Source: Aggregatilineales bacterium
GTDB lineage: Bacteria; Chloroflexota; Anaerolineae; Aggregatilineales; Ch27
Assembly (NCBI GenBank): GCA_029976005.1
Contig: JARKOQ010000149.1
Span: 68,400 to 132,399, forward strand
Direction: 5' to 3'
DNA length: 64,000 nt
Positions within the stretch are counted from its first letter, which is position 1. Each line of letters opens with the position of its first letter. The notes below the pieces were generated by a model that made no database searches, was not told the origin of the DNA, and saw nothing but the letters and a program-made list of their open reading frames with translations. Position numbers and translations under genes: made by a program. Positions 10,959-58,265 of this stretch are shown here, in pieces.

Positions 10959-10960
10959 GG

Positions 10961-11896: not shown

Positions 11897-11990
11897 CACC
11901 TTGTCCTTTGGTCGTTCATGAGGGTGATCGAGTTCGTTTTTGAGCGGGCCAAGTATATCCAGTCTCCCAGTGCGGAACAATGCGCCATCA

Positions 11991-12047
11991 AAAAACGATG
12001 GAACCGCCAAAGCGCCAAGAACGCCAGGAAAAATGCGGAGAAAGGCA
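11991..12047 (+). repeat. Dispersed intergenic repeat, copy A (core AACCGCCAAAGCGCCAAGAACGCCA)
   Basis: Hand alignment with the reverse complement of 41583-41642 matches about 50 of 57 positions, with two short indels. The copy contains three CGCCA(A/G) units spaced 8-9 nt apart. Confidence 0.75.
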
Positions 12048-34142: not shown

Positions 34143-36818
34143 CTATTCCTGGACGCGCAGAATCAGCCGCGGTTCCACGAACGTCACGTCGTCGATCAGG
34201 CCGTTGTTGTCCTCGGTGGAGAACGCCAGCCGGAACTGGACCGAGCGCGCGCCCGCATCCAGCAGGCCGCGCACCAGTACCGTCACGTCCACCGGTTCGG
34301 CCGGGCAGGTCCGGACTGCGCCAACTACCTGCGCGGAATCCAGCGGCCCGAAGTCGCTGGCGTCGAGCCGGTCGTAGGTCAGGCTTTCGATGGCCAGATC
34401 GCCGAGCGTGACAAACGGCCGTCCGTTGGTCGTGCACTCGCCCGGCAGGAGCGTCGCCCGGCCCAACCCGCCGGACGTTATACCTTCCGGCAGGTCAAAG
34501 GTCAAGAAGGCCTGGTAGAGCGCGTTGCGCACATCATCTCCCGGAAAGAGATCGGGGTACTGGCGGCCCAGTTCGCTCAACGAGCCGCTATTCTCCCGCA
34601 CCAGCACCGCTTCGATCTCGGTCCCGGCCGACCCGGCCCCCGCCAGATCGAGATGGAGCGCAAACGCCCCGCTGGAACTCCCCTGGGCTTCCTGGAAGCG
34701 CGTCGCCACGATGGTATACACGCCGGTCGCGGGCAGCCTGAACCCCAGGATGGCCGAGTCGGTGGCCGAAGCGCCGCCGGTCACCGCGTCGTCATTCGAG
34801 GCAAGCGGGTTGCCGTTTGAGTCAAACAGGTACAGGTAGGTATCCAGTGTATCGGTCAGATTCCTGCGCTGGAGGGTGATGTCGACCGCCTGACCGGCCT
34901 GCCCCGCAAACTCGTATTCCAGGCGCGGCGTCGTATCATCGATGGTGCCTTCGACGGTCGCGCCATAGGTCAGCCTCTCGCGGCCGGCGGCCGGCGTAGG
35001 CAGCGCCTCCGGCTCGATTCGCTCGACGATCAACTCGAACTCGCCCTGGGTCGTGCCCTGCTCCGCCTGGAAGCGCGACACCCGCAGCACATAGACGCCG
35101 CTCGCCTCCAGCTCGAACTGGTCGATATGGGAGTCGGTCGCCACATTGCCGCCCGCCGCATCATCATTCTGCGCCAGAACAGCGCCGTTCAGATCCAGCA
35201 GTTCGAGCGCGGTATCCAGGTCGCCGCCGAGCCGGTTGGCGCGAATGCTGACCCGGTCGCCCTGCCCGCCGTGGAACCCATAGTCCCGGACCGGATGGAC
35301 GTCGTCCAGCATGCCGGTGATCCGGTCGCCGTACAGCAGGACGCGATCCTGCTCCGAGGCCAGGGCCGGATCGTTGCCATCCCGCGTGAGGGTGATCTCG
35401 TAGACGCCCGACGAAGACCCCGCCGCCCCACCCGACCGGCCCGCCAGAAGGGTGTACGATCCGGTGTCCGGCAGTTGGAACTGGCGAATCGCGGCATCTT
35501 CGGGCGGCTCGCCTTCCGCATCGTCGTTAAACGCCAGTCCGCGATTGCCCACCCCCAGCAGCACCAGGCGCGCGTCGAGATCGCCGCTCGTCCGCCGCAT
35601 CGTGATCGTGATCACGTCGTTGCGCGCCCCGAAGAAGGTATAGCGCGTCTCCGGCTGGGCGTCGGTCACCAACCCTCGCGCGGTCGATCCATACGCAATC
35701 GCCGCCCCGCCCGGCCCAGGCAGATCGCTGCCGCGAATCAACAGGGTCAGGGCCAGTTCGTAGGTTCCGCTTGACAAGCCGAACTCGCCCTGGAAGCGCG
35801 TCGCCACGATCGTATAGGTTCCATCCTCCGGCAACGACAGCGCCTCGATCCGGGCGTCGGAGGAGCCGCCGCCGATGTCGTCGTTCTGGGCGACCTCATC
35901 CCCGGCCGCATCCAGCAGGCGCAGCGACGCATCCAGATCGCCCTCAACCCGGCGCAGGTCGACCGTCACCACGTCACCGGCCGCCCCATCGAAGGTGTAG
36001 CGCTGCTCAAAAACGGCATCGTCCAGCCCACCGGTCAGGGTATCGCCATAGGCTACCGCCACAACCTCCGGCGGTGCGGGAGTCGGCGTGATCCCGGCCA
36101 GCGTGACGCTCGCGCCGTCGAACTCGAAGGTGACTTCGTATTGCTGGCCCAGTTCCAGGCTGAACGGCTGCTCCAGCAGGACGGTTTCGCCAAGCTGCAC
36201 GGTCAGCGTCGCCGCCAGCGGCCCGCTATTCCCGCAGGCAGCCTGATAGCGCGCGAACACGGTATAGGTCCCGGTCGGAGCCGTATCGCCCGGCCAGGTG
36301 GCCGCTTCCGAGGCTTCCGGAACGGCCCCGGCGCAGGTCGCATTGGCGTCGCCCAGGAACGTGCCGCCGCTGTCCGCCACGGGCTGGAAGCTGGTCAGCC
36401 GGACACCAGATGGCTCCTGCACGCCCAGGTCGATGTTGCCGGTGGTGGCCCAATGCACCGCGATTGCCAGGGTAGGCGGGACGGCGGTCGCTTCCGGGGT
36501 CTGGGTAGGAGTTGAGGTGGGGGTTTCCGTATCGGTCGGGGTCGCGGTCTCCGTGGCCGTCGGAGTATCCGATGGCACGGGCGTCTCGGTCGCCGTCGCG
36601 GTTTGTGTCAGGGTTGGCGTATCCGATGGAGTCGGCGTCTCGGTCGGCAGCGGCGTGGGCGACGGCCCCTCGGTCGGCGGGATGCGCGTGGGCAGCACCG
36701 CCGCGAGGCGCGGAGTCGGCGTGACCTGGGAAACCGGCCCGCAGGCGGCCAGCAGCCCCATCCCGATCAGGATCATCAGCAGCCCCATCCGCAAGCGCGC
36801 CTGTCCCCTCATGCCCAA
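34143..36818 (-). CDS. Secreted lipoprotein with four tandem PPC (pre-peptidase C-terminal)-like repeats
   Basis: Signal/lipobox LLMILIGMGLLAAC and a Thr/Pro linker. A roughly 110-aa unit occurs four times (YGDTLTG.LDD....YTF.G..GD.V.I...R..GDLD..L.LLD..G..LA.NDD...G...DS.I..F.LP..G.Y.IV..RFQ...G...G.FEL). Confidence 0.75.
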   Translation of the reverse strand: MGMRGQARLRMGLLMILIGMGLLAACGPVSQVTPTPRLAAVLPTRIPPTEGPSPTPLPTETPTPSDTPTLTQTATATETPVPSDTPTATETATPTDTETPTSTPTQTPEATAVPPTLAIAVHWATTGNIDLGVQEPSGVRLTSFQPVADSGGTFLGDANATCAGAVPEASEAATWPGDTAPTGTYTVFARYQAACGNSGPLAATLTVQLGETVLLEQPFSLELGQQYEVTFEFDGASVTLAGITPTPAPPEVVAVAYGDTLTGGLDDAVFEQRYTFDGAAGDVVTVDLRRVEGDLDASLRLLDAAGDEVAQNDDIGGGSSDARIEALSLPEDGTYTIVATRFQGEFGLSSGTYELALTLLIRGSDLPGPGGAAIAYGSTARGLVTDAQPETRYTFFGARNDVITITMRRTSGDLDARLVLLGVGNRGLAFNDDAEGEPPEDAAIRQFQLPDTGSYTLLAGRSGGAAGSSSGVYEITLTRDGNDPALASEQDRVLLYGDRITGMLDDVHPVRDYGFHGGQGDRVSIRANRLGGDLDTALELLDLNGAVLAQNDDAAGGNVATDSHIDQFELEASGVYVLRVSRFQAEQGTTQGEFELIVERIEPEALPTPAAGRERLTYGATVEGTIDDTTPRLEYEFAGQAGQAVDITLQRRNLTDTLDTYLYLFDSNGNPLASNDDAVTGGASATDSAILGFRLPATGVYTIVATRFQEAQGSSSGAFALHLDLAGAGSAGTEIEAVLVRENSGSLSELGRQYPDLFPGDDVRNALYQAFLTFDLPEGITSGGLGRATLLPGECTTNGRPFVTLGDLAIESLTYDRLDASDFGPLDSAQVVGAVRTCPAEPVDVTVLVRGLLDAGARSVQFRLAFSTEDNNGLIDDVTFVEPRLILRVQE

Positions 36819-45354: not shown

Positions 45355-45978
45355 ATGACTCTTGTTGCGGAGTGGAACGCCCTGACCTGCATTTACGCCG
45401 CCGCCTTGCTGATGGGGTTTCTGTACGCCCTGTTCCTGATCTTCTTCCAGGGGGTGGGCCACGCCTTCCACATCGATCTGGACGGCCACCATTTCGACCT
45501 GGGCGGGCATCAGGTCGACCTCGGTCACGCTGGCGGCCATGACCTGCACGCGGAGGGGCACGACAATTCCGAGGCCACCGGCCTGAGCATGCTGGCCATC
45601 AGTGGCTTCGTCACCGCCTTTGGGGCCTTTGGCCTGGCGGCCACCGGTTTGCTGCACGCCGGAGTCCTAGTCAGTCTGGGCCTGGCGATCCTGGGCGGAG
45701 TCGCCGTGGGCGCGGCGGCCCAGCTTCTGTTCATCCGCGTGCTGTCCACCACCACCAGCAGCAACCTGGACCTGAGCGCCCTCAAGGGCAGCCCGGCCCA
45801 GATCATCACCCCCATCCCGGCCGACGGGATGGGCCAGATCGCCTTCGTGCTGCGCGGCCAGCGAGTCACACTGAGCGCACGCTCGTCCAGCGCGACCAGT
45901 CTGCCGCGCGGCACACAGGTCATCATCGACGGCATCCGGGATGGCGTAGCCTACGTCTCCCCTGGTGGGGAGGACTGA
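45355..45978 (+). CDS. NfeD-family membrane protein with a His-rich loop
   Basis: TM helices plus a C-terminal OB-like segment (GSPAQIITPIPADGMGQIAFVLRGQRVTLSARS...VIIDGIRDGVAYVSP). It lies immediately upstream of flotillin, the classical NfeD-SPFH pairing. Confidence 0.75.
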   Translation: MTLVAEWNALTCIYAAALLMGFLYALFLIFFQGVGHAFHIDLDGHHFDLGGHQVDLGHAGGHDLHAEGHDNSEATGLSMLAISGFVTAFGAFGLAATGLLHAGVLVSLGLAILGGVAVGAAAQLLFIRVLSTTTSSNLDLSALKGSPAQIITPIPADGMGQIAFVLRGQRVTLSARSSSATSLPRGTQVIIDGIRDGVAYVSPGGED

Positions 45979-46043
45979 CGCCTCCCTTGAACGAATTCAA
46001 AATCTTTGAATCGGCTGCCATCAACCTAAAAGGAGTGAATACC

Positions 46044-47501
46044 ATGGAAGCCCTGGGTGGAATTGCATTGCTTGTACTGTTCTTCGTGCTGCTCACGGTG
46101 CTGGTGGTCTACCTCAGCCGTATTCGCACCATCGGCCCCAACGAGGTCCTGATCATCTCCGGCCGCAAACGCATCACCGTCAACGCCGTCACCGGCGAGA
46201 AGGAAGAACAGAGCTACCGCGTCGTCAAGGCCGGGCGGGCCTTCATCTGGCCGGTGATCGAGCGCGTGGACGTGCTCTCCCTGGAGCTGTTGACCATCGA
46301 GATCAGCATCGATGACGTCTACACCGCCCAGGGCGTCGCCGTCAGCCTGGATGGCGTGGCCCAGATCAAGATTGCCAGCGACGACGTCAGCATCCGCACC
46401 GCCGCCGAGCGCTTCCTCTCCAAGAGCCGGGCCGAGCTTCAGGAAGTCGCCCATGAGACTCTGGCCGGGCATCTGCGCGCCATCGTCGGCACGCTGACTG
46501 TCGAGGAAATCTACCGCGAGCGCGACAAGTTCGCCCAGAGTGTGCAGTTGGTTTCCGCCGATGACCTCAAGAACATGGGTCTGGCAATCGATAACTTCGT
46601 CATCAAGGACATCCGCGATAGCGAAGGTTATTTGAATGCGCTCGGCCGCCCGCGCATCGCCGACGTGAAACGCCTGGCCGTGATCGCCGAGCAGACCGCT
46701 TCGACCGAAGAAGAAGCCGCCCGGCGCGACTTTGGCGTGAAGAAAGCCGAATACGACCGCGAGGTCGCCCGCCAGCGCGCCGAATCCGACCTGGCCTACA
46801 AGCTCCAGGAAAGCATCACCAACCAGCAGGTGCGCGAGCAGGAAGTCCAGGTGGATGTCGTCTCCAAGCGCAAGCAGATCGAGCTTCAGGAACAGGAAGC
46901 CATGCGCATGGAACGGGAGTTGGAAGCCACCGTCCGCAAACCGGCCGAGGCCGAGCAGTTCCGCATCCAGACCATCGCCAACGCCCAGCGCTTCCAGATC
47001 GAGACGCAGGCGGCCGGTGATGCCGAAGCCATCCGGGCGCGCGGCCTGGCCGAGGCCGAGATCGTCAAGCAGCGCGGTATGGCCGAGGCGGAAGTCGTCC
47101 GGACGCGCGGTCTGGCCGAAGCCGAGGTCGTCCTGAAGCAGGGGTTGGCCGAAGCGGAAGCGATGGAGAAGAAGGCCCTGGCCTGGCAGATGTACAACCA
47201 GGCGGCCATCATCCAGCAGTTGATCGAGGCCATGCCGCGCATCGCTGCCGCCATCGCCGAGCCGCTCTCCAAGACGGAGAAGATCGTGGTCATCAGCAAC
47301 GGGTCGGACGGCGGGGGCGCGGGTGCGTCCAAGGTTTCGGCGGACATTGCCAGCATCATCGCCCAGGTGCCCTCCACCATCGAGGCCCTGACCGGCGTCG
47401 ACCTGATCGAGACGCTCAAGAACCTGCCCGGCGTCCAGACCACGGACGGCGGCAAGGCTGCTCCACGGGCGGAAAGCGGCGACGTCATCGACAACCGCTG
47501 A
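46044..47501 (+). CDS. Flotillin (SPFH/Band 7 family)
   Basis: AAAGGAG lies 8 nt before ATG 46044. N-terminal TM helix, SPFH domain, then Ala/Glu-rich flotillin repeats (RGLAEAEIVKQRGMAEAEVVRTRGLAEAEVV). Confidence 0.9.
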   Translation: MEALGGIALLVLFFVLLTVLVVYLSRIRTIGPNEVLIISGRKRITVNAVTGEKEEQSYRVVKAGRAFIWPVIERVDVLSLELLTIEISIDDVYTAQGVAVSLDGVAQIKIASDDVSIRTAAERFLSKSRAELQEVAHETLAGHLRAIVGTLTVEEIYRERDKFAQSVQLVSADDLKNMGLAIDNFVIKDIRDSEGYLNALGRPRIADVKRLAVIAEQTASTEEEAARRDFGVKKAEYDREVARQRAESDLAYKLQESITNQQVREQEVQVDVVSKRKQIELQEQEAMRMERELEATVRKPAEAEQFRIQTIANAQRFQIETQAAGDAEAIRARGLAEAEIVKQRGMAEAEVVRTRGLAEAEVVLKQGLAEAEAMEKKALAWQMYNQAAIIQQLIEAMPRIAAAIAEPLSKTEKIVVISNGSDGGGAGASKVSADIASIIAQVPSTIEALTGVDLIETLKNLPGVQTTDGGKAAPRAESGDVIDNR

Positions 47502-47525
47502 ACCGGCGGCGGTCGATTGCTTGCA

Positions 47526-47558
47526 GCGGGGATACCACCAGCGTATCCCCGCTTTTTT
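47526..47558 (+). terminator. Intrinsic terminator after flotillin
   Basis: GCGGGGATA-CCACCAGCG-TATCCCCGC followed by TTTTTTG. Confidence 0.8.
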
Positions 47559-47655
47559 GTATCAGAGCGCCGCGGTGCGTTATCGGCAAACCGGGGTCTA
47601 TGGTAGACTTGGAAGTGCCTGGACGCGCCGCAGGCACGTTTTTTGGGGAGGCACC

Positions 47656-48534
47656 ATGCGCCTGAGCACATACTCGATCGCCGCCTATGCACCGGAAGAA
47701 CGGGCCTGGGGCGTCGCGGTCGCCAGCAAGTTCCTGGCCGCCGGAGCCGTGGTGAGTTGGGCGCGCGCCGGTGTTGGCGCGGTCGCCACCCAGGCGTTGG
47801 CACGGGTCAGCTTTGGGCCGGATGGGCTGGCCCTGTTGGCCCAGGGCCGGCGCGCCGCCGCCGTGCTCAACCACCTGCTCGCCAGCGATCCCCATGCCGC
47901 CGATCGCCAGGTCGGAATCGTGGACGCCCACGGCGGTTCGGCCGCCCATACCGGCGCGAACTGCCATGCCTGGGCCGGCCACCGCACCGGGCAAGGCTTC
48001 ACCTGTCAGGGCAACATCCTCACCGGGCCGGAAACCCTGGACGCCATGGCGGACACATTCACGAGCGCTTCCGGCGAGCTGGCCGACCGGCTGGTCGCGG
48101 CCCTGCTGGCCGGGGATACCATCGGCGGCGACCGGCGCGGCAAGCAGGCGGCGGCCGTGCTTGTCGTCCGGCCCAATGGCGGCTACGGCGGCGACACCGA
48201 CCGCTACCTCGACCTGCGCGTCGATGACGACCCCGATCCGGTGCGGCGCTTGAGCGCCCTGGTCGCGCTCCACCATCTCTTCTTTGGGACGGTCGATCCG
48301 GACGACCTGATGCCGATCGGCCCCGACATCGCCCGCGAGCTTCAAACCCTGCTCCGGCGCGAGGGCTACCTGGATCGGGAAGCCTCCGGCGACTGGGACG
48401 AGCCATCCCAAAAGGCCTTCTGGAATCTGGTGAACAATGAAAATCTGGAGGAGCGCTGGGCCATCGACCGCCAGCCCGGCCAGATCGACCGCGTGACTCT
48501 GAACTATCTGCGCCAACGTTTCGATCGGAAGTGA
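47656..48534 (+). CDS. DUF1028 (Ntn-hydrolase-like) protein with C-terminal PG_binding_2-like domain
   Basis: GGGGAGG precedes ATG 47656. MRLSTYSIAAYAPEERAWGVAVASKFLAAGAVVSWARAGVGAVATQA is the DUF1028 N-terminal signature. The tail is REGYLDREASGDWDEPSQKAFWNLV. Confidence 0.85.
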   Translation: MRLSTYSIAAYAPEERAWGVAVASKFLAAGAVVSWARAGVGAVATQALARVSFGPDGLALLAQGRRAAAVLNHLLASDPHAADRQVGIVDAHGGSAAHTGANCHAWAGHRTGQGFTCQGNILTGPETLDAMADTFTSASGELADRLVAALLAGDTIGGDRRGKQAAAVLVVRPNGGYGGDTDRYLDLRVDDDPDPVRRLSALVALHHLFFGTVDPDDLMPIGPDIARELQTLLRREGYLDREASGDWDEPSQKAFWNLVNNENLEERWAIDRQPGQIDRVTLNYLRQRFDRK

Positions 48535-48570
48535 TTGCCCGTCTGTGTGAGCGAAAGTACAATTACAGCC

Positions 48571-49218
48571 ATGTCCGGTCTATTTCAAAAGATAAACACC
48601 CTGCTCAAAGCTCGGATCGACAGCTTCCTGGAAGAAGACCTGCGTCTCTCCCGGCAGCCGGATGAAAACGCGCTTCTGACGGCCGGCCGGCTGGGCAAGG
48701 ATGTCGATCAGGAAGTCGCCGCGCTGCGCCAGCGGATCGAAGAGGCGCTCAACTACGAGGACTCGCTTCAGGAAAAGATCGATGCCCTCCGGCAGGAAGC
48801 CTCCGATCTCGACGGCGAGGCCGATGACGCCCTGCGGGGCGGCCAGGAAGACACGGCTCGGCGCGCCCTGGAGCAAATGCGACGCCTCCAGCAGCAGGCC
48901 CATATGGTGGAAGCCGACCTGGTTCAGCACCGGCGCACGACCGCGGAATTCATCGAGCGCGTGAACGTGCTGGAAGGATTGATCGCCGAAGCCAGACGTA
49001 AAGAAGACACCAGTAGCATGACCGAGCCGCCCGCCGAAACCCTCGATCGCGTCCTGCAAACGGCACGGCAGGACGCCGAAACGCCGGGGCGAGCCGAACC
49101 CGTACGCGTGATTGTGAACCCGCCGCCGCCCGCAGAATCACCATCACCTTCTGCGAATGATGATCTGGCCGCCCGCCGCGCCCGACTGGCCCGGCGCAGC
49201 GCCGAACAAGAGGAGTAA
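48571..49218 (+). CDS. PspA/IM30-like coiled-coil protein (tentative)
   Basis: N-terminus MSGLFQKINTLLKARIDSFLEED resembles the PspA/IM30 amphipathic start (MGLFxR....A..N.LLdkaED). It is followed by about 150 aa of heptad-rich helix. Length is 215 aa. Confidence 0.55.
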   Translation: MSGLFQKINTLLKARIDSFLEEDLRLSRQPDENALLTAGRLGKDVDQEVAALRQRIEEALNYEDSLQEKIDALRQEASDLDGEADDALRGGQEDTARRALEQMRRLQQQAHMVEADLVQHRRTTAEFIERVNVLEGLIAEARRKEDTSSMTEPPAETLDRVLQTARQDAETPGRAEPVRVIVNPPPPAESPSPSANDDLAARRARLARRSAEQEE

Positions 49219-49224
49219 TTCCCG

Positions 49225-49932
49225 ATGCGCCCTTGTGTCCTCACCGTCGATGACGATCTCCATATGCGCACGATGCTGACCGATGCGCTCACCAGCGAAG
49301 GGTATGAGGTGGAACAGGCCAGCTCCGCCAAAATCGCCCTGGCGCTCGTCGAACGGCGTAAACATGATTTGATCATCCTCGATGTCGGCATGCCCGAAAT
49401 GGATGGCGTGACTCTGTGCCGCCGCCTCCGCCAGGACCCGCGCTTCACATCGACTCCGATCCTGTTCCTGACGGCCTATTCCCAGCCGGATGACATCATT
49501 CGCGGCCTGGACGCCGGGGGCGACGACTACACCCTCAAGCCGATCGAGCTGCCCGTCTTCCTGGCCCGGGTTCGCGCCCTGCTGCGCCGCCGCGCGTACG
49601 GGCATGGCGCGGCGGACGACTCGAGCGCGGTGCTGCAAGTCCGCCGGCTCACCCTCAATTCGGATACGTATCAGGTCATGGTGGAGGGACGATCCCCGAT
49701 CCAGCTCACGGCCACCGAGCACCGCCTGCTACGCTACATGATGGAAAACGCGCAGCAGCCGCTTTCGCCCCAGCGCCTGCTGGAAGCAGTCTGGGAATAT
49801 CCCCCCTACACGGGCGACCCGGACCTGGTCCGCGTGCACGTCCGCAATCTGCGCTCCAAGCTGGAGAGCGACACCCGCCAGCCGGAGTTCATCCAGACCG
49901 TGCACGGGGTTGGATACACGCTGACCGGCTAG
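49225..49932 (+). CDS. OmpR-family response regulator
   Basis: REC domain (VDDD, phospho-acceptor LIILDVGMPEMDG, KP) plus a winged-helix domain (LTATEHRLLRYM, RVHVRNLRSKLE, IQTVHGVGY). Confidence 0.9.
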   Translation: MRPCVLTVDDDLHMRTMLTDALTSEGYEVEQASSAKIALALVERRKHDLIILDVGMPEMDGVTLCRRLRQDPRFTSTPILFLTAYSQPDDIIRGLDAGGDDYTLKPIELPVFLARVRALLRRRAYGHGAADDSSAVLQVRRLTLNSDTYQVMVEGRSPIQLTATEHRLLRYMMENAQQPLSPQRLLEAVWEYPPYTGDPDLVRVHVRNLRSKLESDTRQPEFIQTVHGVGYTLTG

Positions 49933-49952: not shown

Positions 49953-49974
49953 GGGGGCGAGGCCGCTCGCCCCC
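49953..49974 (+). terminator. GC hairpin after the response regulator (no T-tract)
   Basis: GGGGGCGAG-GCCG-CTCGCCCCC, a 9-bp stem. Confidence 0.4.
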
Positions 49975-50129
49975 ACATTCCCCCATGCTTCACGGACAAA
50001 TCTCTATCATTTCCTCACAAATCGAATCAAAGCCCCGACAGAGTGATATGGTATCATCAACTTAGAGTGAGCCTATCTCTGCGGCATCTGTCATGCTGGC
50101 GTTCAGATAGTGAACCGGGGAATCAAACC

Positions 50130-51107
50130 ATGCGCCGTGTTCTGAAAAACCTGCTCAAAGCCCTGGATGGCGCGCCTTTGCCCGACCCTGCTTCCGGCCG
50201 GAGCCGGCGCGGCCAGAGTCTGGTCGAACTGACCCTGGTCATGCCCATCCTGATCATCATGCTGCTTGGGCTGATCGAAATCGCCTGGCTGGCCAACCAC
50301 TTCCTGATCCTGATGGACGTCTCCCGTTCGGCGGCCCGCTTCGGCGCGCTCAGCGACCCCACGCTGTGGGACGAAGGCGACGAGCGCTACCTGGAGCGGA
50401 TGGACTGCAACGACGTGGATGGCGGATCGTACGTCGACGCGGACAACACCCTCTATCTGCCCATCACGGATTACTCCCACCTGCCCAGCGACTGGTTCGA
50501 GCCAGTCGGGTCGGAATCGGACATCGGCTATTACGATGGCGTCGCCTGCGCGGCGGTCCAGGACCTGGCCCCGCTGGTCTTTGACACCGAGAAGGACGAT
50601 GTTGTCGTCTCGGTCTTTTCGTTCATGTCGGAAGACCTGCACCGCAATGGCAACGTCGGCGTTTATGTCACCGGCCGCTACCCCGCCCACCAGAATGAAT
50701 GCAGCAACGAGACGTACGATCCGTTTGACGTCAACGACAACGGCATCGGCGACGCCACGACCGAAAACGTGGGGCTGATGTACGACGGGATCATCGAAAC
50801 CGGCCCGTTTGACAACTCCGAAAACGTGCGGGGCTACGTGCTGACCGGCCACCATCAGGTTTCCGACGCGCCGGGCTGCATCGGCTCCGAATTCAGCACC
50901 GCTGAAATCGAAGCCATGCTCAACGGGGCGAACAACCTGGAAAACAGCTTCATCCCCAACAACGGCCTGGTCGTCGTGGAGATGTTCTGGCATCACCGCC
51001 AGTTGCTCGGCCTGCGCTTCTTTACGATCATCGGGGATGACTTCGAACTGCACGTCTGGTCCATGTATCCGGTCACGGCCGCCGAACCAACCGCGACGCC
51101 CGGTTAG
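50130..51107 (+). CDS. TadE-like protein (long, 325 aa)
   Basis: RRGQSLVELTLVMPILIIMLLGLIEIAWLANHFLILMDVSRSAARFGA matches the TadE-like N-terminal domain. It is followed by an acidic extracytoplasmic domain. Confidence 0.75.
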   Translation: MRRVLKNLLKALDGAPLPDPASGRSRRGQSLVELTLVMPILIIMLLGLIEIAWLANHFLILMDVSRSAARFGALSDPTLWDEGDERYLERMDCNDVDGGSYVDADNTLYLPITDYSHLPSDWFEPVGSESDIGYYDGVACAAVQDLAPLVFDTEKDDVVVSVFSFMSEDLHRNGNVGVYVTGRYPAHQNECSNETYDPFDVNDNGIGDATTENVGLMYDGIIETGPFDNSENVRGYVLTGHHQVSDAPGCIGSEFSTAEIEAMLNGANNLENSFIPNNGLVVVEMFWHHRQLLGLRFFTIIGDDFELHVWSMYPVTAAEPTATPG

Positions 51108-51122
51108 CACAGGGAACGGTCA

Positions 51123-52889
51123 ATGGCTATGCGCACATTCGCCAAACACCTCAAGCACCGCGTTCTGCACGAGACCCAGGCAGGCCAGGCCATCATCCTG
51201 CTGGCCCTGGCCATGGTCGCCTTGCTCGCTTTCGTCGGCCTCGTGACCGATATCTCGCTTTTGTTCGTGCGGTTCAGCCAACTCCGGCGCGCCATCGACG
51301 CGGCTTCCATTGCGGCGGCCGGGCAGGTCCGCGAGAACCGCGAGTACGCCGACATCGCCCTGGCAGCGCGCCAGTTCATCCGCCTGCACGGCCTGGACCC
51401 TGAGCGCGTGCTGGTCCAGACCTGCGTCACCAATCCCGGCGATCCTGAGCTGTGCACCACCCCGCCCCGCAAACTGGTGCGGGTCCTGGCCCAGATCGAC
51501 TCCCCGACCACCTTCCTGCGGCTGATCGGCTGGCAGAACGTCACCCTGGAGACTTCCGCCGTGGCCGAGACGGCCGCGTTGGATGTGGCCCTGGTGCTTG
51601 ACACCTCGGAATCGATGGCCGACCCAACCACGGCGGCCGACTACACGGCCGTCAATTCCTCCTACGTATTCCGCTCGAACTGCGTGGTCGGCCCCATCAC
51701 CGGAAGACCCAACTACGCCTACTATGAGTGCTGCAACGATCCGGGCAAGGGGACGGTCGCGCTGGATGGCACCATCAGCGACATGGGCAACGGCAGCGAC
51801 ATGGATGGCGACTACAGCGACCTGGTCTGCCAGCCGTTCAAGCAGGTCAAGGACGCGGCCCGCGAATTCGTCGGCCGCCTGGACTTTGTGCGCGGCGACC
51901 GCGTGGTCTTCGTCACGTTCGACCGCAACGCCGCTCCGGTGCTGCCCAACAACCCCAGCGGGCCGGGCACCCTGGACCCATTGATCACGGACGAAGGCGT
52001 GGCCATCCTGACCCTGAACAAGCAGGTCGGCGTGGGGATGAACCACACGGCCCATACCGGCGAACAGGGGCGCTGCATCACCTTCGGCGTTGAGACCATG
52101 TACACCTACAACTGGGCGGCCCCCTGCATGGACACGAACATGGGCGGCGGTGTCCAGGCGGCCACGTCGATCCTGACCGACCCGCGTTACATCCGCCGCA
52201 GCGCCGTGTGGGTCATCATTCTGCTGAGCGACGGCGCGGCCAACGCCACGCCGCCCGCGGTCCAGAGCGATGGCAGCGGGGGGTATGAAAACGTGGTCAG
52301 CGCCTATGGGGAGCACGGGTACTGCCCCTGGTGGACGTTCTGCCGGACCGCCGATGGATTCGCGGAATGCGACAGCATCGACCCCACGGACGAAGAAGGC
52401 ACCCAGCCTTTCTGCTCGGACAATGATCCTGCCTCGCGCCATTTCTGCGTCAACGGCGTGGGCGACATCGCCATCGACGCGCCGGGCTGCGACGTCAGGC
52501 GGTACGATGCCAACGACTACGTGATGGACATGGCGGATATCGCCGGCCTGAACGAAGTCCGCGAAGGGCAGGCAGGCAACTTCATTGCCATGTACACCAT
52601 CGGGTTCGGTACCCCGACCAGTCCGCTCGTGGCCCTGGGTGAAGCCACGCTGCGCTACGTCGCCGATGCCGGCGACAACGGCCTCATCGATAACAACTGG
52701 CAGCAGGACTGCCGTGACGATGGCGTGTGCGGCAACGGCTCCGCCACCAATCTGGGCAGACTGGACGACTGCGAAGGCGCGGCCTACAAAGCGGACTGCG
52801 GCCAGTACTGGTATGCCGACAACCCGGATGACCTCGAGCGCGTTTTTGCCGAGATCGCCAGCCGTCTGTTCACGAGACTGTCGCGGTAG
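51123..52889 (+). CDS. TadG-like (Flp pilus-assembly TadE/G-like) protein with VWA domain
   Basis: The N-terminus QAGQAIILLALAMVALLAFVGLVTDISLLFVRFSQLRRAIDAASIAAA is TadG-like. MIDAS-like motif LDVALVLDTSESM. Confidence 0.75.
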   Translation: MAMRTFAKHLKHRVLHETQAGQAIILLALAMVALLAFVGLVTDISLLFVRFSQLRRAIDAASIAAAGQVRENREYADIALAARQFIRLHGLDPERVLVQTCVTNPGDPELCTTPPRKLVRVLAQIDSPTTFLRLIGWQNVTLETSAVAETAALDVALVLDTSESMADPTTAADYTAVNSSYVFRSNCVVGPITGRPNYAYYECCNDPGKGTVALDGTISDMGNGSDMDGDYSDLVCQPFKQVKDAAREFVGRLDFVRGDRVVFVTFDRNAAPVLPNNPSGPGTLDPLITDEGVAILTLNKQVGVGMNHTAHTGEQGRCITFGVETMYTYNWAAPCMDTNMGGGVQAATSILTDPRYIRRSAVWVIILLSDGAANATPPAVQSDGSGGYENVVSAYGEHGYCPWWTFCRTADGFAECDSIDPTDEEGTQPFCSDNDPASRHFCVNGVGDIAIDAPGCDVRRYDANDYVMDMADIAGLNEVREGQAGNFIAMYTIGFGTPTSPLVALGEATLRYVADAGDNGLIDNNWQQDCRDDGVCGNGSATNLGRLDDCEGAAYKADCGQYWYADNPDDLERVFAEIASRLFTRLSR

Positions 52890-52939
52890 TCTTTCGCCGA
52901 CGAATGTGGTCTGTTCGAATTCATAGAGAGGGCAAGTCT

Positions 52940-55732
52940 ATGGATGCCAAGCTGGAAATTCCTCCCAGCCCCTCATCAACCAGGCGCCGCCGGGGACAGG
53001 CGCTGGCAGAATTTGCGCTCACGCTGCCGATTCTGCTGTTACTACTGTTCGGCATCATCGAGTTCGCCCGGATCTTCCAGGCCTGGGTGACCCTGCAGAA
53101 CGCGGCGCGCACGGCGGCCCGTTATGCCATCACCGGGCAGGTGGAAGCCGCCGAACTGGAAAAAATCGCCGATACCTACGCCATCAGTGTCGGCAACACG
53201 GCGGCGGCGGCCGCGGCCGATACCCGCAACCAGCTCTGTCTGAACGGCGACTATCGCGGGACGCACTCGGCTTTCGGCCCGTACACGCCCGCCGGGTATC
53301 AGGACTACGAGTCGGTCTTCGCCAATCACTGGGACGGCCTCGACTGCGAGCCGGGCAGTGAAGATCACCAGGGTCTGATCAACGACATGGGGCGTATCGG
53401 CTCCATCCGCAACCAGGCGCGCATCGGCGCGGCCGGTCTGGACGTCCGGATGTGGGATGACCAGGCCTACGCCATCGAAGCCGATCCCGGAACCGGCGAC
53501 TTCGTGCGCTGGGCCAATGATACCGTGCCCGGTTGGTTCCACGTCTTCATCTGCTCGTCGCGGCCCACCCTGCGCGAAGGCGACGACGCCACGCCGCGCT
53601 ACACCGCCAATCGTGACAACCTGACCTGCGTCGTTCAGGAATACCGTGGCACGCCGCCTTCCGGCTACACGGACTACCACGACGACGATCAGACCGTCAA
53701 TAACTATCAGAATCTCCAGTGGGACGCCGGCGGCCCCGGCGACGCGGTCGAGATCATCATCACCTTCAACCACCCACTGATCACCCCGCTGGCCCTGCCG
53801 ACCTACGTCCAACTCCAGGCCCGCCGCGTGATGGTCAACGAAGCCTTCCGCTCCTCGCGCGTGGTCAACCTGCCGCCGGCGCTGGCGCGGGCGTCCGCGA
53901 CTCCTTCGGATACGCCGACGGCTTCCGACGTGCCTCCGGCGACCGATACCGCGACGCCGACCGACACCCCGACGGCGACCGCCACGGCGACCCAGACCGG
54001 GACGCCCACCGCCACCGCGACCCCGGACTGCTCGATGCTGTCGATCGTCAGCACCGGCTTCAGCGGGGCCTACTTCCAGGTCAGCATCCGCAACGAGAAC
54101 ATCGCCGCACTCAACCTGGAAGGCGTGCGGCTCGAATGGCCCAAGCACGCGCTGTTCCCGAACATGTACGCCGACCTGATGCAGTGGCAAGGCCAGACGC
54201 ACTGGGATGGCACGGATACCACGCCGCCCACCATCACCGGCGCCGCGCCTGGCCCTGGGACCGACGCGACCTGGATCAGCAGCGCCAACGTGCGTCTGAA
54301 TGGCAACAGCACCGCCAACTGGCAGGTTCGCTTCGCCAACGGCCCGTTCAACATGTCGGCCTACTACAACCGTCCGGACTTCACCGGGTCGACCTGGTAC
54401 TTCAGCAATGGGTGCGTCCTCAGCTACTCGGAGGCGACCCCGACGCCGATACGCGGAACGCCCACCTTCACGCCTACCCCGGTCTGCGGCACCTACAACC
54501 TGCGCTTCGAGGCCTTCTGGCCGCACGGCGTGGTTCAGTTCAGCATCACCAACCCAGGCGGCACGCCGATCCAGATCACCGGTATCGACATGCGCTGGAT
54601 CTATTACTACAGCGGGATGAATCTCGACTTCATCTCCATCGGAGGCACCAACGCCTTCGACCCGGCCACGGTCATCGTCTGGAACGGCAACGACGTGGGG
54701 ACAACCGTCGGGGCGGTAACCAACACGGCGACCGGCACGCTGGGTAGCGAACCGACCTGGCTGATCAACGCCACGGTCAATGTGGGCGACACCGTCTACA
54801 TGTGGCTGGACTACGACGGTACGTCCGAGTCGCTCGATACGGGCTACGGCGCCAAGGACTACGACTTCAACGGCACGCGGATCGCCTTCGACAACGGCTG
54901 CATCATCACGCCGCCCGTCATCAACACGCCCATCCCGCCCCAGTGCGGTGACAGCATCGTTCAGAGTTCGCTCGGCGAGCAGTGCGACGACGGCAACACG
55001 GTCCAGAACGATAGCTGCGACAACAACTGCAAGTTCACCTGCGGCAACAACGTGGTGCTTGCGCCGGAAACCTGCGACGACGGCAACCGGGTCAGCGGCG
55101 ACGGCTGTAACAGCTCGTGCCGCCTTGAGTACTGCGGTGACGGCGCGACCCAGTCGGCCCTCGGCGAGCAGTGCGACGACGGCAACACCAACGACACGGA
55201 TAGCTGCAGCAACACCTGCCGGTACACCTGCGGCAATGGCGTCGTCGCCGGCTCCGAGCAGTGCGACGACGGCAACCGGACCAGCGGCGACGGCTGCAAC
55301 AGCTCGTGCCAGAAGGAATACTGCGGTGACGGCACGATCAACAAGGACTACACCACGGGCGTGGTGGATCAGTGCGACGACGGCAACAAGAACAGCGGCG
55401 ACGGCTGCTCGAGCACCTGCCGCATCGAAGCCCCGGTCTGCGGGAACAGCCGGGTGGAAACGGGCGAGCAGTGCGATCCGCCCAGCAGCGCGAATTACTG
55501 CTCCAGCACCTGCCAGCGTATCCCGTACTGCGGCGACGGCACGGTCAACCAGGCCAGCGAGCAGTGCGAGCCGCCCAATACCTCGACCTGCAATGCGACC
55601 TGCCAGCGTATCATAGCTGCGCCGGTCTGCGGTAACGGCGTGGTGGAAACCGGCGAGGAGTGCGAGCCGCCCAACACCTCGACGTGCAGCTCGACCTGCA
55701 AGATCAGCATCTGCATGGACTGCGGCAGCTAG
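52940..55732 (+). CDS. Giant TadE-like-anchored surface protein with two internal paralogous domains and eight C-terminal Cys-rich repeats
   Basis: GAGAGGG precedes ATG 52940. RRGQALAEFALTLPILLLLLFGIIEFARIFQAWVTLQNAARTAARYA is a TadE-like domain. Thr/Pro linkers are present. The C-terminus carries repeats of the form CGDG....GEQCDDGN...GDGCSS.C. Confidence 0.75.
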   Translation: MDAKLEIPPSPSSTRRRRGQALAEFALTLPILLLLLFGIIEFARIFQAWVTLQNAARTAARYAITGQVEAAELEKIADTYAISVGNTAAAAAADTRNQLCLNGDYRGTHSAFGPYTPAGYQDYESVFANHWDGLDCEPGSEDHQGLINDMGRIGSIRNQARIGAAGLDVRMWDDQAYAIEADPGTGDFVRWANDTVPGWFHVFICSSRPTLREGDDATPRYTANRDNLTCVVQEYRGTPPSGYTDYHDDDQTVNNYQNLQWDAGGPGDAVEIIITFNHPLITPLALPTYVQLQARRVMVNEAFRSSRVVNLPPALARASATPSDTPTASDVPPATDTATPTDTPTATATATQTGTPTATATPDCSMLSIVSTGFSGAYFQVSIRNENIAALNLEGVRLEWPKHALFPNMYADLMQWQGQTHWDGTDTTPPTITGAAPGPGTDATWISSANVRLNGNSTANWQVRFANGPFNMSAYYNRPDFTGSTWYFSNGCVLSYSEATPTPIRGTPTFTPTPVCGTYNLRFEAFWPHGVVQFSITNPGGTPIQITGIDMRWIYYYSGMNLDFISIGGTNAFDPATVIVWNGNDVGTTVGAVTNTATGTLGSEPTWLINATVNVGDTVYMWLDYDGTSESLDTGYGAKDYDFNGTRIAFDNGCIITPPVINTPIPPQCGDSIVQSSLGEQCDDGNTVQNDSCDNNCKFTCGNNVVLAPETCDDGNRVSGDGCNSSCRLEYCGDGATQSALGEQCDDGNTNDTDSCSNTCRYTCGNGVVAGSEQCDDGNRTSGDGCNSSCQKEYCGDGTINKDYTTGVVDQCDDGNKNSGDGCSSTCRIEAPVCGNSRVETGEQCDPPSSANYCSSTCQRIPYCGDGTVNQASEQCEPPNTSTCNATCQRIIAAPVCGNGVVETGEECEPPNTSTCSSTCKISICMDCGS
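54944..55729 (+). repeat. Eight tandem Cys-rich repeats (Myxococcus cysteine-rich repeat / DUF4215-like), coding
   Basis: Units of about 30-38 aa each have 4 Cys, for example CGNGVVAGSEQCDDGNRTSGDGCNSSCQKEY. In the last three units DDGN is replaced by EPPNTSTC. Confidence 0.8.
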
Positions 55733-55762: not shown

Positions 55763-55797
55763 AAGCGCCCCCGGAGCCTGAGGTTCCGGGGGCGCTT
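55763..55797. terminator. Bidirectional hairpin terminator between convergent genes
   Basis: AAGCGCCCCCGGA-GCCTGAGGT-TCCGGGGGCGCTT, a 13-bp stem. Confidence 0.6.
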
Positions 55798-55828: not shown

Positions 55829-56572
55829 CTACAGCGCGCCGATCCGGCGGAGCTTGGCCCGGACTTCCATCCGCGATTCGCGCATGGCCTCCTCCAGGTA
55901 AGGCAGCGCCAGCCAGCCGTTCATCAACCCAAAGAACGCCCCGGTCACCGTCCGGAACAGCGGCGTCGACTCGCGCACCGGCCACAGGCTGATCGGCGGC
56001 GCGCTGAGGAGCTGGCTCACCCCATCCAGCGCGATCGGCCCCAATCCCAGAAAGGCATACAGTAGCAGGGGCACCGGCCGCAGCCTGCGCCGCACGAAGG
56101 CGAAAAATACGGAAAAGGCCAGCAGCGCGCCATAGGTGGCGATGTCCCGCTCGCACAGCGCGACCTTGTAACCCATCACCTCATTGCCGACAAACGTCCG
56201 GGACAGTTCGATCAGCTCGACCGACCACTGGCTCAGATCGGGCACGTCCTGGAAATACGGGTCGCGGCTGGCATACGTCTCGTACGAAGCCAGCCCATCC
56301 ACCCCGGCAACGGCTCTGGGATAGGCCGCCTGCTCGCCGAACAGGAACCAGGATCGAAAGGCGAACTGGTGGCACAGGGGCGCATACATCGCGTAGATCA
56401 CGCGCGCCGGCCCTTCCGCACCCAGGTGCATCAGCGTGGGGGCGAGAAAAGGCAGTCCCACGAACAGCGCGAAGAAGCCGGTCACCAGCCACAACCAGGT
56501 CTTGCTCAGCCACAATACGGCCCGCTGGGCGCGAATCGCGCGGCGGCGGGCAGCTTCGTCATTGACAGGCAT
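55829..56572 (-). CDS. DUF2085 membrane protein
   Basis: ATG 56572. PLCHQFAFRSWFLFG and ALCERDIATYGALLAF match the DUF2085 Cys/His pattern. Confidence 0.7.
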   Translation of the reverse strand: MPVNDEAARRRAIRAQRAVLWLSKTWLWLVTGFFALFVGLPFLAPTLMHLGAEGPARVIYAMYAPLCHQFAFRSWFLFGEQAAYPRAVAGVDGLASYETYASRDPYFQDVPDLSQWSVELIELSRTFVGNEVMGYKVALCERDIATYGALLAFSVFFAFVRRRLRPVPLLLYAFLGLGPIALDGVSQLLSAPPISLWPVRESTPLFRTVTGAFFGLMNGWLALPYLEEAMRESRMEVRAKLRRIGAL

Positions 56573-56642
56573 GGTTCCTTCCGTATCCAGATCAGGTCCG
56601 GCGACTCCGCGCCGCCCACGGCCAGACTCGCGCATGAACCGC

Positions 56643-58265
56643 TCAACTCGGACTGGCCCCGGTGGGATTGTCCAGAGCAGCCTGCACGTACCTCTCCAGT
56701 TGCTCCGCCGTCAGCACGCCCAGATGGCGGGCCACGATCACACCCTCCCGATTCACGATGAAGGTCGATGGCATGCTGATCACCTGGTAAACGCCCGCCG
56801 TGATCCGCTCGTCGGGATCGAGCACCAGCGGGAAGGTCAGCCCGAACTCCTGGCGGAAGGCGGCCACGCGCCCGGCGGATTCGGCCCGATTCACCCCCAC
56901 GACCAGCACGTCCTGATCGGCATAACGCTCGGCGGCCGCCTGCAAGTCGGGCATCTCGGTCCGGCAGGGACCGCACCAGGTCGCCCAGAAATTGAGCACG
57001 ATCACGCTGCCCCGCGTTTCGCTCAGGGTGAAAGATTGGTTGCCGTCGGTCACGGTCTCGAAATCGGGCGCGATCAGCCCTTCATCCAGCCCGACGGCGG
57101 GCAGATCGGCGGATTCCAGCGGCGCGAGGCTGCCCAGAATGCCCGACGCGGCCGCCTCCCCTCCGGGAGATGCGGGCGCGGCTGCATCGCCCTGCCCCGC
57201 CGGGACGTAGTTCAGGCCCGCGTCCATGCACGCCCCAACCTCGCCCAGACCGATCCGGCCGCTGAACAGCTCCGTCGCGCAATGTTCCAGGTTAATCGAG
57301 AAGTCACCGGCCGAACCAAGCTGGCTGAATTGCTGAAGCTGCCCGGTCAGCACCAGCACTCCGATCACGATCAGGAACAGGCCGCTCACCAGCTCGATCG
57401 TCTTCATGTGGCGCTGCAAGCGGCGCAGCAAGCCCTGCATCCGATCCAGGGCGACGGCAGTCAGCAGGAAAGGCACCCCCAGCCCCAGCGAGTACGCGGT
57501 CAGCAGCAGCCCGGCCTGGCTCAGCGATCCCCCGTTGGCGGCCAGAGTCAGCACCGCGCCATACACCGGGCCGATGCACGGCGTCCACCCGGCGGAAAAG
57601 ACCACGCCCATCAGGGCCGACCCGGCATACCCGGCTTCGCTGCGCGCCTGCATCTGGCGGCGCGTATCGGCATACAGCACCGTTTGCAAGCGAGTCAGAG
57701 TCTTCATCCAGAAATCGCCGGGCCGGGTCAGCGCCCCACCCAGCACCAGCCAGCCTGCGTACAGCCCCACCCCGATCGCGATTGGGATCAGCGTTACCAG
57801 CGACCAGGCCAGCACCAGCCCAACGAGCACTTCGACGGCCAGCGTGATCGCGTAACCTACGCCGTTATTCATCTGGCCGGTCTGGCCCATCACCCAGCCA
57901 ATCACGCGCGGCAGAACGCCCATGACGTGCAACCCGAAGAGCACGATCACAAGGCCGCCCAGGCGGGTCAGGATTTCCTGCACGTCCACCACCGAGCCGC
58001 GCAGGGCCAGCGATCCGGCCGTGGTCAGCAGGCCGAAGGTGACGAAGACAAACGTGAAGCCCAGCACGAAAAAGAGGCCATGGATCAGGGTGTTGAAGCG
58101 ATTCTGGTGCGCGGCGACCGCGCCGCCGCCCGCCGTCGCCGCGACCTGAGTCGTCACCTGCCCGCCCATGTAGCCCACGTAGGCCGGCACCAGTGGCAGC
58201 ACGCAGGGCGAGATAAATGACACCAGCCCGGCGATGAAGGCGATTCCAATCGTGATATCGGCCAT
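56643..58265 (-). CDS. CcdA/DsbD-type thiol-disulfide transporter fused to a TlpA/ResA-like thioredoxin domain
   Basis: N-terminus FIAGLVSFISPCVLPLVPAYVGY and a second GWTPCIGPV (CcdA Cys pair). C-terminus VIVLNFWATWCGPCRTEMPDL (WCGPC). Confidence 0.85.
   Translation of the reverse strand: MADITIGIAFIAGLVSFISPCVLPLVPAYVGYMGGQVTTQVAATAGGGAVAAHQNRFNTLIHGLFFVLGFTFVFVTFGLLTTAGSLALRGSVVDVQEILTRLGGLVIVLFGLHVMGVLPRVIGWVMGQTGQMNNGVGYAITLAVEVLVGLVLAWSLVTLIPIAIGVGLYAGWLVLGGALTRPGDFWMKTLTRLQTVLYADTRRQMQARSEAGYAGSALMGVVFSAGWTPCIGPVYGAVLTLAANGGSLSQAGLLLTAYSLGLGVPFLLTAVALDRMQGLLRRLQRHMKTIELVSGLFLIVIGVLVLTGQLQQFSQLGSAGDFSINLEHCATELFSGRIGLGEVGACMDAGLNYVPAGQGDAAAPASPGGEAAASGILGSLAPLESADLPAVGLDEGLIAPDFETVTDGNQSFTLSETRGSVIVLNFWATWCGPCRTEMPDLQAAAERYADQDVLVVGVNRAESAGRVAAFRQEFGLTFPLVLDPDERITAGVYQVISMPSTFIVNREGVIVARHLGVLTAEQLERYVQAALDNPTGASPS

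Follow-up and report, generated by a model that had tools for sequence, protein, structure and literature searches.

What would three genes for minor components of a pilus be doing at a locus that holds no other pilus gene? The question is raised by a 64,000-nt stretch of contig JARKOQ010000149.1 from an Aggregatilineales bacterium (Chloroflexota, Anaerolineae), hereafter the window, in which three consecutive genes, here called g1, g2 and g3, encode a TadE-class protein, a TadG/CpaL-class protein with a von Willebrand factor A (vWA) domain, and a second, modular TadE-class protein (Table 1). We favour, with a probability of roughly 0.7, the answer that the trio specifies a minor-pilin complex for the tip and initiation of a Tad (Flp, type IVc) pilus encoded elsewhere in the genome, fitted with adhesive display modules.

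A conserved trio of TadE- and TadG-class genes

All three open reading frames (ORFs) lie on the plus strand, with 15 nt between g1 and g2 and 50 nt between g2 and g3, and our ORF analysis returned exactly the coordinates, lengths and gaps given in an earlier reading of this DNA (the original prediction). That reading had also assigned TadE/TadG-type N-termini to the proteins and placed a PspA-like and an OmpR-type gene upstream of them, and Pfam agreed on both counts. Against gathering scores of 22.9 bits for TadE (PF07811) and 22.3 bits for Tad (PF13400), g1 and g3 reached 37.9 and 59.9 bits for TadE, respectively, and g2 reached 25.3 bits for Tad over residues 21–67, with a weak Tad_C match at residues 64–148.

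For neighbourhood comparisons, a scan of one genome per species provided 71 loci, all from metagenome-assembled genomes (MAGs) labelled Anaerolineae, Aggregatilineales, Thermoflexus, Anaerolineales, Ardenticatenia, Chloroflexia or unclassified Chloroflexota, and the complete sample comprised 76 non-redundant loci (1.38 Mb). The order g1-g2-g3 was invariant in the 67 loci that were complete (67/67). Among relatives whose identity ranged between 65% and 28%, the set always consisted of a TadE, a TadG/vWA and a large TadE-like protein, and no pilus genes were present within 10 kb. Homologs of g2 number in the hundreds; those that carry a name belong to Anaerolineae/Chloroflexi MAGs or to the described species Aggregatilinea lenta, whose ortholog (42% identity) is called 'pilus assembly protein TadG-related protein' at NCBI. 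A tblastn search with g2 against plasmids gave no match.

These data leave practically no room for the idea that the trio represents chance ORFs or decayed, functionless leftovers of an earlier tad locus. The G+C content at third codon positions of the three genes (0.80–0.87, in a window of ~65% G+C) is similar to that of the surrounding genes, hundreds of full-length homologs (28–84% identity) retain invariant motifs and cysteines, and the AlphaFold2 (AF2) models are confident. We found nothing in favour of this idea, which the conservation refutes.

Table 1. Features of the trio locus, in window coordinates, and of the two compact sister clusters, in loci L081 and L084
Feature	Coordinates	Strand	Description and basis
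g1	50130-51107	+	325 aa, TadE-class; ORF call and Pfam
g2	51123-52889	+	588 aa, TadG/CpaL-class with vWA; ORF call and Pfam
g3	52940-55732	+	930 aa, TadE-class, modular; ORF call and Pfam
g3 pilin-like module, residues 1-304	52940-53851	+	Pfam TadE, motif, AF2
g3 beta-sandwich domain 1, residues 364-495	54029-54424	+	AF2, invariant C364/C492
g3 beta-sandwich domain 2, residues 516-655	54485-54904	+	Paralogy to domain 1, AF2, C516/C654
g3 array of eight 4-Cys repeats (DUF4215/TIGR02232)	54944-55699	+	Pfam, NCBIfam, regular expression
OmpR-family response regulator	49225-49932	+	Pfam Response_reg and Trans_reg_C; putative trio regulator
GC-rich hairpin 3' of the regulator gene	49953-49974	+	RNA fold -21.9 kcal/mol, z -2.1
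Upstream block GGACAAATCTCTATCATTTCCTCACAAATC	49994-50023	+	ACAA-type direct repeats, period ~11 nt; putative operator
Extended -10-like element TGGTATCAT	50049-50057	+	~70 nt upstream of the g1 start codon
Terminator-like hairpin just past the g3 stop	55765-55795	+	-36.8 kcal/mol, z -6.2, 0/200 shuffles as stable
Compact sister cluster L081	9134-13955		Peptidase_A24, TadE (~226 aa), Tad/vWA (~541 aa), third TadE-like
Compact sister cluster L084	6949-11362		Gene order as in L081

Prepilin motifs and sister clusters linked to a prepilin peptidase

Both TadE-class proteins carry a class III signal peptide, with a basic leader, Gly at -1, Glu at +5 and a hydrophobic alpha1 helix. The leader of g1 ends at G28, and the motif G28|QSLVE33 places Glu33 at +5, followed by the hydrophobic helix; that of g3 ends at G19, with G19|QALAE24 and Glu24 at +5. 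The patterns [RK]GQS[LIM]VE in g1 and [RK]GQ[TAS]xxEF in g3 are kept in essentially all of the ~70 orthologs of either protein, E33 and E24 being invariant or near-invariant. As Tomich et al. are said to have reported in 2006, the Gly-1/Glu+5 motif marks substrates of prepilin peptidase, TadE and TadF included. The N-terminus of g2 has G21|Q22 and no Glu at +5, and its orthologs keep G-Q-[SA]-I-x-L-L-A. Absence of Glu5 is typical of TadG and likewise of GspK, the tip-most minor pseudopilin of type II secretion.

More distant relatives connect proteins of this type with the peptidase itself. The weakest match of the g1 search, P0341, came from a different Chloroflexi MAG, in which a Peptidase_A24 gene accompanies genes for a TadE of 226 aa, a Tad/vWA protein of 541 aa and a third TadE-like protein. 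A metagenome scan with the sister TadG then led to a second lineage, 36% identical, with the identical four-gene order (Table 1). Because these sister trios directly follow the Peptidase_A24 gene, they provide context evidence that trio-type proteins are peptidase substrates; motif and genomic context together suggest that a prepilin peptidase would cleave g1 and g3, the predicted site in g1 being G28|Q29. A Chloroflexi TadE of 226 aa, located after a Peptidase_A24 gene, could moreover be aligned with 91% of the length of g1, so that we regard g1 as a TadE with insertions and not as a TadE helix fused to a foreign part. The AF2 model of g1 has a helix at residues 25–73 and a four-stranded sheet (predicted local distance difference test score, pLDDT, 86; predicted template modelling score, pTM, 0.84).

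As the class III motif is common to the subunits of all type IV filaments and some Chloroflexota carry other such filaments, for instance an archaellum (bioRxiv 10.1101/2025.08.19.671072), the trio might also encode minor pilins of a different filament, either a short pseudopilus for secretion or cell-wall crossing or another class of pilus. We consider this very unlikely, since the N-termini match the Tad-specific TadE and Tad families and not the N_methyl or type II secretion system (T2SS) pseudopilin families, and Tad is the pilus system reported for filamentous Chloroflexota (PMC7332563, PMC4877987).

Proposed display modules of g2 and g3

The vWA assignment of g2 follows from Pfam hits and from the invariant residues of a MIDAS (metal-ion-dependent adhesion site). 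The DTSES motif that had been noted before occupies residues 160–164, and the complete five-residue MIDAS (D160, S162, S/T164, T338 and D370) is kept in 36/36 homologs, among which 16 of the 18 cysteines of g2 are also invariant. The Pfam VWA score is borderline (23.9 versus a cut-off of 23.8) owing to two large, Cys-rich insertions.

The layout of g3 is that of modular type IV pilins: a pilin module is followed by a Thr/Pro linker, two beta-sandwiches and then an array of DUF4215/TIGR02232 repeats (101 bits for DUF4215; 173 bits for TIGR02232 in NCBIfam). An AF2 model of residues 1–665, built on an alignment of 106 homologs, had a mean pLDDT of 87.5, with values >90 across most of the pilin-like module. 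It contains a 45-residue helix (residues 21–65) and, reaching to ~300, a globular part of helical/beta structure; a Thr/Pro linker modelled as disordered (305–352) and the two beta-sandwiches follow. The latter are bracketed by conserved Cys pairs (C364/C492 and C516/C654) and are paralogous, with 25% identity and an E value of 1e-6 by BLASTP, which bears out the proposal of two related domains of ~130 aa; the eight Cys-rich repeats noted in the earlier reading were likewise recovered by a regular-expression count, at residues 669–920. Foldseek searches of the PDB with g3 returned weak matches (E 7.5e-6 to 1e-3, template modelling (TM) score ~0.1–0.25), all of them to beta-sandwiches of the tandem jelly-roll, carbohydrate-binding or adhesin kind: SGBP-B, tandem CBM22, a sialidase carbohydrate-binding module (CBM), factor VIII C domains, FnBPA and Als. 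We read the modelled tandem domains as a binding-module-like fold, with no particular ligand implied. No catalytic family was matched, and the suggestion that the ectodomains are enzyme-like thus found no support and was dropped. Profiles of the g1, g2 and g3 families yielded nothing useful against PDB sequences; the sole match of the g3 profile, to 8zvk at profile positions 632–716, was not taken as evidence of homology.

Orthologs of g3 share the first ~700 residues, that is, the pilin module and both beta-sandwich domains, and beyond this point they vary by lineage, ending in DUF4215 repeats (in the clade of the window), PA14/GLEYA, DUF11, SpaA-like or PKD modules, or in nothing, with total lengths of up to ~2150 aa. 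These variable modules are of domain types known from adhesins. Larger third genes were seen in L077, L043, L071 and L072 (stop-to-stop ORFs of ~2150, 1500, 1117 and 1097 aa, respectively), which suggests that additional distal modules are stacked there.

The trio is conserved away from pilus machinery

A Pfam scan of the 41 likely genes of the window revealed housekeeping and envelope functions only, and no T2SSE ATPase, T2SSF platform protein, peptidase A24, CpaB/RcpC or secretin. Every six-frame ORF of at least 50 aa was then searched with phmmer, using as queries CpaF, TadB, TadC, CpaE, CpaB and CpaA taken from raw DNA of Sinorhizobium pSymA, where the cpa genes were located via the Walker-A motif. 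No match was obtained in the window or in any of the fetched loci. A Chloroflexi peptidase A24 query (from L081) also had no match among the six-frame ORFs, and a regular-expression search for Flp-like small ORFs in the window found none. The claim that the window lacks pilus machinery is confirmed. Linkage to a Tad system, which would be expected of the TadE class, is absent, as no gene for CpaF, TadB/C, CpaA or Flp turned up either in the window or in the 76 related loci.

One explanation would be that the window simply captures the edge of an ordinary tad locus. We rejected it because the trio is conserved as a stand-alone unit across Anaerolineae loci; in the relatives, synteny consists of housekeeping genes on both flanks. 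A complete tad locus just outside the window, or N-termini that fail the TadE/TadG models, had been named in the original prediction as outcomes fatal to it, and we found neither: the N-termini pass, and syntenic relatives have no tad locus within ~10 kb on either side. The term 'orphan' used there is apt as a description of the locus and misleading if it implies an oddity, as separation from the machinery is the rule in this lineage and is conserved there.

A probable transcription unit with its own predicted promoter and conserved neighbours

Upstream of g1 lies the gene of an OmpR-family response regulator. A hairpin 3' of this gene probably separates it from the trio transcription unit, and a very stable, terminator-like hairpin past the g3 stop would mark the end of the operon (Table 1). 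Neither these flanking hairpins nor the conserved promoter were called by a simple terminator/promoter scan; the former were found by direct folding and the latter by comparative alignment. The block at 49994–50023 is identical or nearly so in relatives with 58–68% protein identity, in which the flanking intergenic DNA has diverged. Nearly all trio loci have TG[GT]TAT[CGT]AT at the -10-like position, and in most of them it is preceded by related ACAA-type repeats with a period of ~11 nt. Winged-helix regulators of the OmpR/PhoB type typically bind tandem direct repeats spaced about one helical turn apart. Given the ACAA-type repeats and the conserved upstream block, the adjacent regulator is the putative controller of the trio, which, to judge from conservation, would form a stand-alone operon under its own promoter.

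Of the 57 loci with sufficient upstream sequence, 43 encode an OmpR-type regulator no more than 1.5 kb upstream of g1, and 26 have a PspA-like gene no more than 6 kb upstream of the trio. Downstream, DUF2085 and a DsbD/thioredoxin fusion are convergent with the trio in 31 of 54 loci. The PspA and DUF2085-DsbD/thioredoxin flanks persist even at 28% identity (L082).

In the window, the PspA/IM30-like gene is found at 48535–49218, upstream of the regulator; in L082 and L083 the PspA homolog is directly beside the trio, with no regulator in between. The downstream pair, at 55829–58265 on the minus strand and thus tail-to-tail with the trio, encodes a DUF2085 membrane protein and a 540-aa fusion of DsbD_TM/CcdA and thioredoxin (AhpC-TSA/Redoxin). 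A disulfide-handling role of this pair is conceivable, since g2 and g3 are very rich in Cys.

The observations of the last two sections can also be accommodated by a surface complex that has nothing to do with a pilus, in which the Tad-type helices, cleaved or not, would only anchor the vWA protein and the modular adhesin in the membrane, under the control of the adjacent regulator and perhaps in connection with envelope stress. Such a complex would account for the lack of pilus genes within ~10 kb in 76 loci, for the deep synteny with PspA (26/57) and DUF2085-DsbD/thioredoxin (31/54) and for an operon with its own promoter and regulator. However, it is hard to see why a mere anchor should preserve Gly(-1)/Glu(+5) in both TadE-class proteins or why sister clusters should stand co-oriented directly behind a prepilin peptidase gene; in addition, two small-headed pilin-like proteins and one TadG/vWA protein are precisely a Tad minor-pilin set (PMC6916266, PMC12607857). 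We regard this alternative as unlikely. A related scenario holds that the trio derives from pilins and has become uncoupled from pilus assembly in Anaerolineae, serving as a self-contained, regulator-controlled adhesin complex for filament-to-filament or floc cohesion, with its biogenesis tied to PspA upstream and to DUF2085 and DsbD/thioredoxin downstream; this we hold to be rather improbable.

Comparison with known Tad tips

A close parallel to the trio is found in Caulobacter crescentus CpaJ, CpaK and CpaL, which likewise comprise two TadE-class proteins and one TadG-class protein whose vWA contains a MIDAS of five residues and an additional inserted region (PMC12607857). CpaL, the TadG ortholog, combines a pilin-like module with a vWA that contains an insertion, its MIDAS is formed by D160/T162/S164/T470/D515, and a trimer of CpaL with CpaJ and CpaK is predicted as the cap at the pilus tip (PMC12607857). 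Unlike in Caulobacter, the second TadE-class protein of the trio is very large (930 aa) and modular, and the three genes are encoded together, away from the machinery and behind their own putative regulator, in a presumably monoderm member of the Chloroflexi. Minimal monoderm Tad systems require two minor pilins plus TadZ or TadG (PMC6916266).

Myxococcus xanthus provides a second precedent. Four three-gene TadE/F/G-like 'Tip' clusters are described in Myxococcus, of which three lie apart from the loci of the kil machinery (PMC12075869), and KilL, KilM and KilN resemble the trio in being TadE, TadF and TadG homologs, some of them unlinked, with prepilin cleavage sites (PMC12075869). The disulfide-rich, variable distal domain by which KilLMN tips are customised is also comparable (PMC12075869). 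There, however, the large variable subunit is the TadG-like KilN, whereas here it is the TadE-class g3, and the TadG-like g2 has a conserved vWA; furthermore, the trio occurs as a single cluster per locus, and the function in Myxococcus is predation (PMC12075869). Since the Tip1-4 HMMs are restricted to Myxococcota (PMC12075869) and the trio comes from Anaerolineae, we did not file it in those families.

Looser parallels exist as well. TadE, TadF and TadG of Aggregatibacter actinomycetemcomitans belong to the identical Pfam families, but their genes are part of the canonical tad locus, with pseudopilins of ~190 aa, whereas the trio genes are unlinked and much larger. The 2006 work of Tomich et al. 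reportedly found G/xxxxE(F) in both A. actinomycetemcomitans pseudopilins and not in TadG. Established examples of modular pilins, with grafted vWA (PilB) or lectin (PilC) modules, come from Streptococcus sanguinis (PMC8179133, PMC9934059, PMC6916266); they are of the type IVa class and of different pilin families, and their sequence relationship to the trio stops at the class III signal peptide. In the phylum itself, 'rcpC-tadZABC, tadEEG, and flp' are given as separate items for Chloroflexales (PMC7332563). This 'tadEEG' agrees with the trio in the three kinds of gene and in their being apart from rcpC-tadZABC and flp, but it is mentioned there by name only, without sizes or domains, and the order in the trio is E-G-E.

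Overall, the trio fits the known framework of Tad tips closely and represents a kind of system that has already been described. Its differences lie in the large variable subunit being of the TadE class, in the conserved tandem jelly-roll core, in an apparently dedicated OmpR-type regulator and operator, and in the systematic separation from the machinery.

A proposed tip complex for a pilus encoded elsewhere

The original prediction had offered two possibilities, subunits at the tip of, or accessory to, a pilus encoded elsewhere, and a pilus-independent complex. The former is better supported, on account of the G|QxxxE motif, the folds predicted for g1 and g3 (a long alpha1 helix plus a beta-sheet, possibly pilin-like), the peptidase-linked sister clusters and the CpaJKL and KilLMN precedents; the enzyme-like part of that proposal is given up. 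Its likely setting is provided by the literature: Anaerolineae have a conserved pilA(Flp)-cpaB-cpaE-cpaF-tadB-tadC cluster in which no tadE or tadG is listed (PMC4877987, PMC9942424), and Tad functions are encoded in the majority of Chloroflexota MAGs from wastewater (PMC10746286).

In the model that we propose, the OmpR-type regulator would act on the ACAA repeats upstream of the extended -10 element to yield a single g1-g2-g3 transcript. The three proteins would enter the membrane via their N-terminal hydrophobic helices, and a TadV/CpaA-type peptidase would cut g1, g3 and perhaps also g2 behind the invariant Gly of (R/K)G|Q. By analogy with the CpaJ/K/L and KilL/M/N models, the three alpha1 helices would then associate as a heterotrimer, which would prime the polymerisation of Flp and finally occupy the distal tip, with g2, which has no Glu+5, at the apex. 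The tip would thereby present the MIDAS vWA of g2 and, on the long Thr/Pro stalks of g3, two jelly-roll-like beta-sandwiches and a lineage-variable adhesin module, and these displayed modules may mediate attachment or filament-to-filament aggregation. The fixed co-occurrence of the three genes in 67 loci is compatible with a heterotrimeric tip.

Several points weigh against a pilus tip. In none of 76 other Anaerolineae loci does the trio adjoin a pilus machinery gene within ~10 kb, a pattern that fits a pilus-independent system equally well, and the presence of Tad machinery in trio-bearing genomes is taken from the general Anaerolineae literature. The heterotrimer is an analogy. The g1 model had no significant match among solved structures (best E 0.69), the Foldseek matches of g3 are weak, and the VWA score of g2 barely exceeds its cut-off. 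Finally, the N-terminal region of the third protein of L081 reads SQGAVEFAL, in which Glu is at +3 and not at +5.

If the tip reading is correct, it bears on a group of practical interest. In wastewater and anaerobic digesters, filamentous Anaerolineae make up the backbone of flocs and granules, and Tad pili have been held responsible for their adhesiveness (PMC4877987, PMC10746286). The published Anaerolineae clusters (pilA, cpaB/E/F, tadB/C) list no minor pilins, and the operon likely supplies the missing tip components. It also puts names to candidate adhesins, namely a MIDAS vWA, tandem jelly-roll domains and swappable distal modules, together with a candidate regulator and operator. The concept of customisable Tad tips, a recent proposal, is not itself new; the trio would extend it to a distant, presumably monoderm phylum, with the variable module on the TadE-class and not on the TadG-class subunit. 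Aggregatilinea lenta offers a described species with a trio ortholog.

Other genes in the window

Upstream of the PspA-like gene, positions 45355–48534 encode a 207-aa membrane protein without a Pfam match, which may be NfeD-like to judge from its sequence, then a flotillin (Band_7/Flot) and a DUF1028 protein with PG_binding_2. Synteny of this block is limited to the closest relatives (6–9 loci).

A typical MoxR operon, with genes for a MoxR-type AAA_3 ATPase, DUF58 and DUF4129 in a row, occupies positions 8113–12010 on the minus strand. We considered a link between these genes and the trio and rejected it; at a distance of 38 kb and with no synteny in relatives, the operon is probably unrelated to the vWA protein. 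Also on the minus strand are two adjoining genes for dynamin-family GTPases of 588 and 641 aa (25691–29379), a bacterial dynamin-like pair, and a gene for a probably secreted protein of 891 aa with three bacterial pre-peptidase C-terminal (PPC) domains and no other Pfam match (34143–36818). At 342–2243, a single ORF, whose start codon is provisional, joins a glycosyltransferase of family 9 (heptosyltransferase-like) to a WecG/TagA/CpsF glycosyltransferase.

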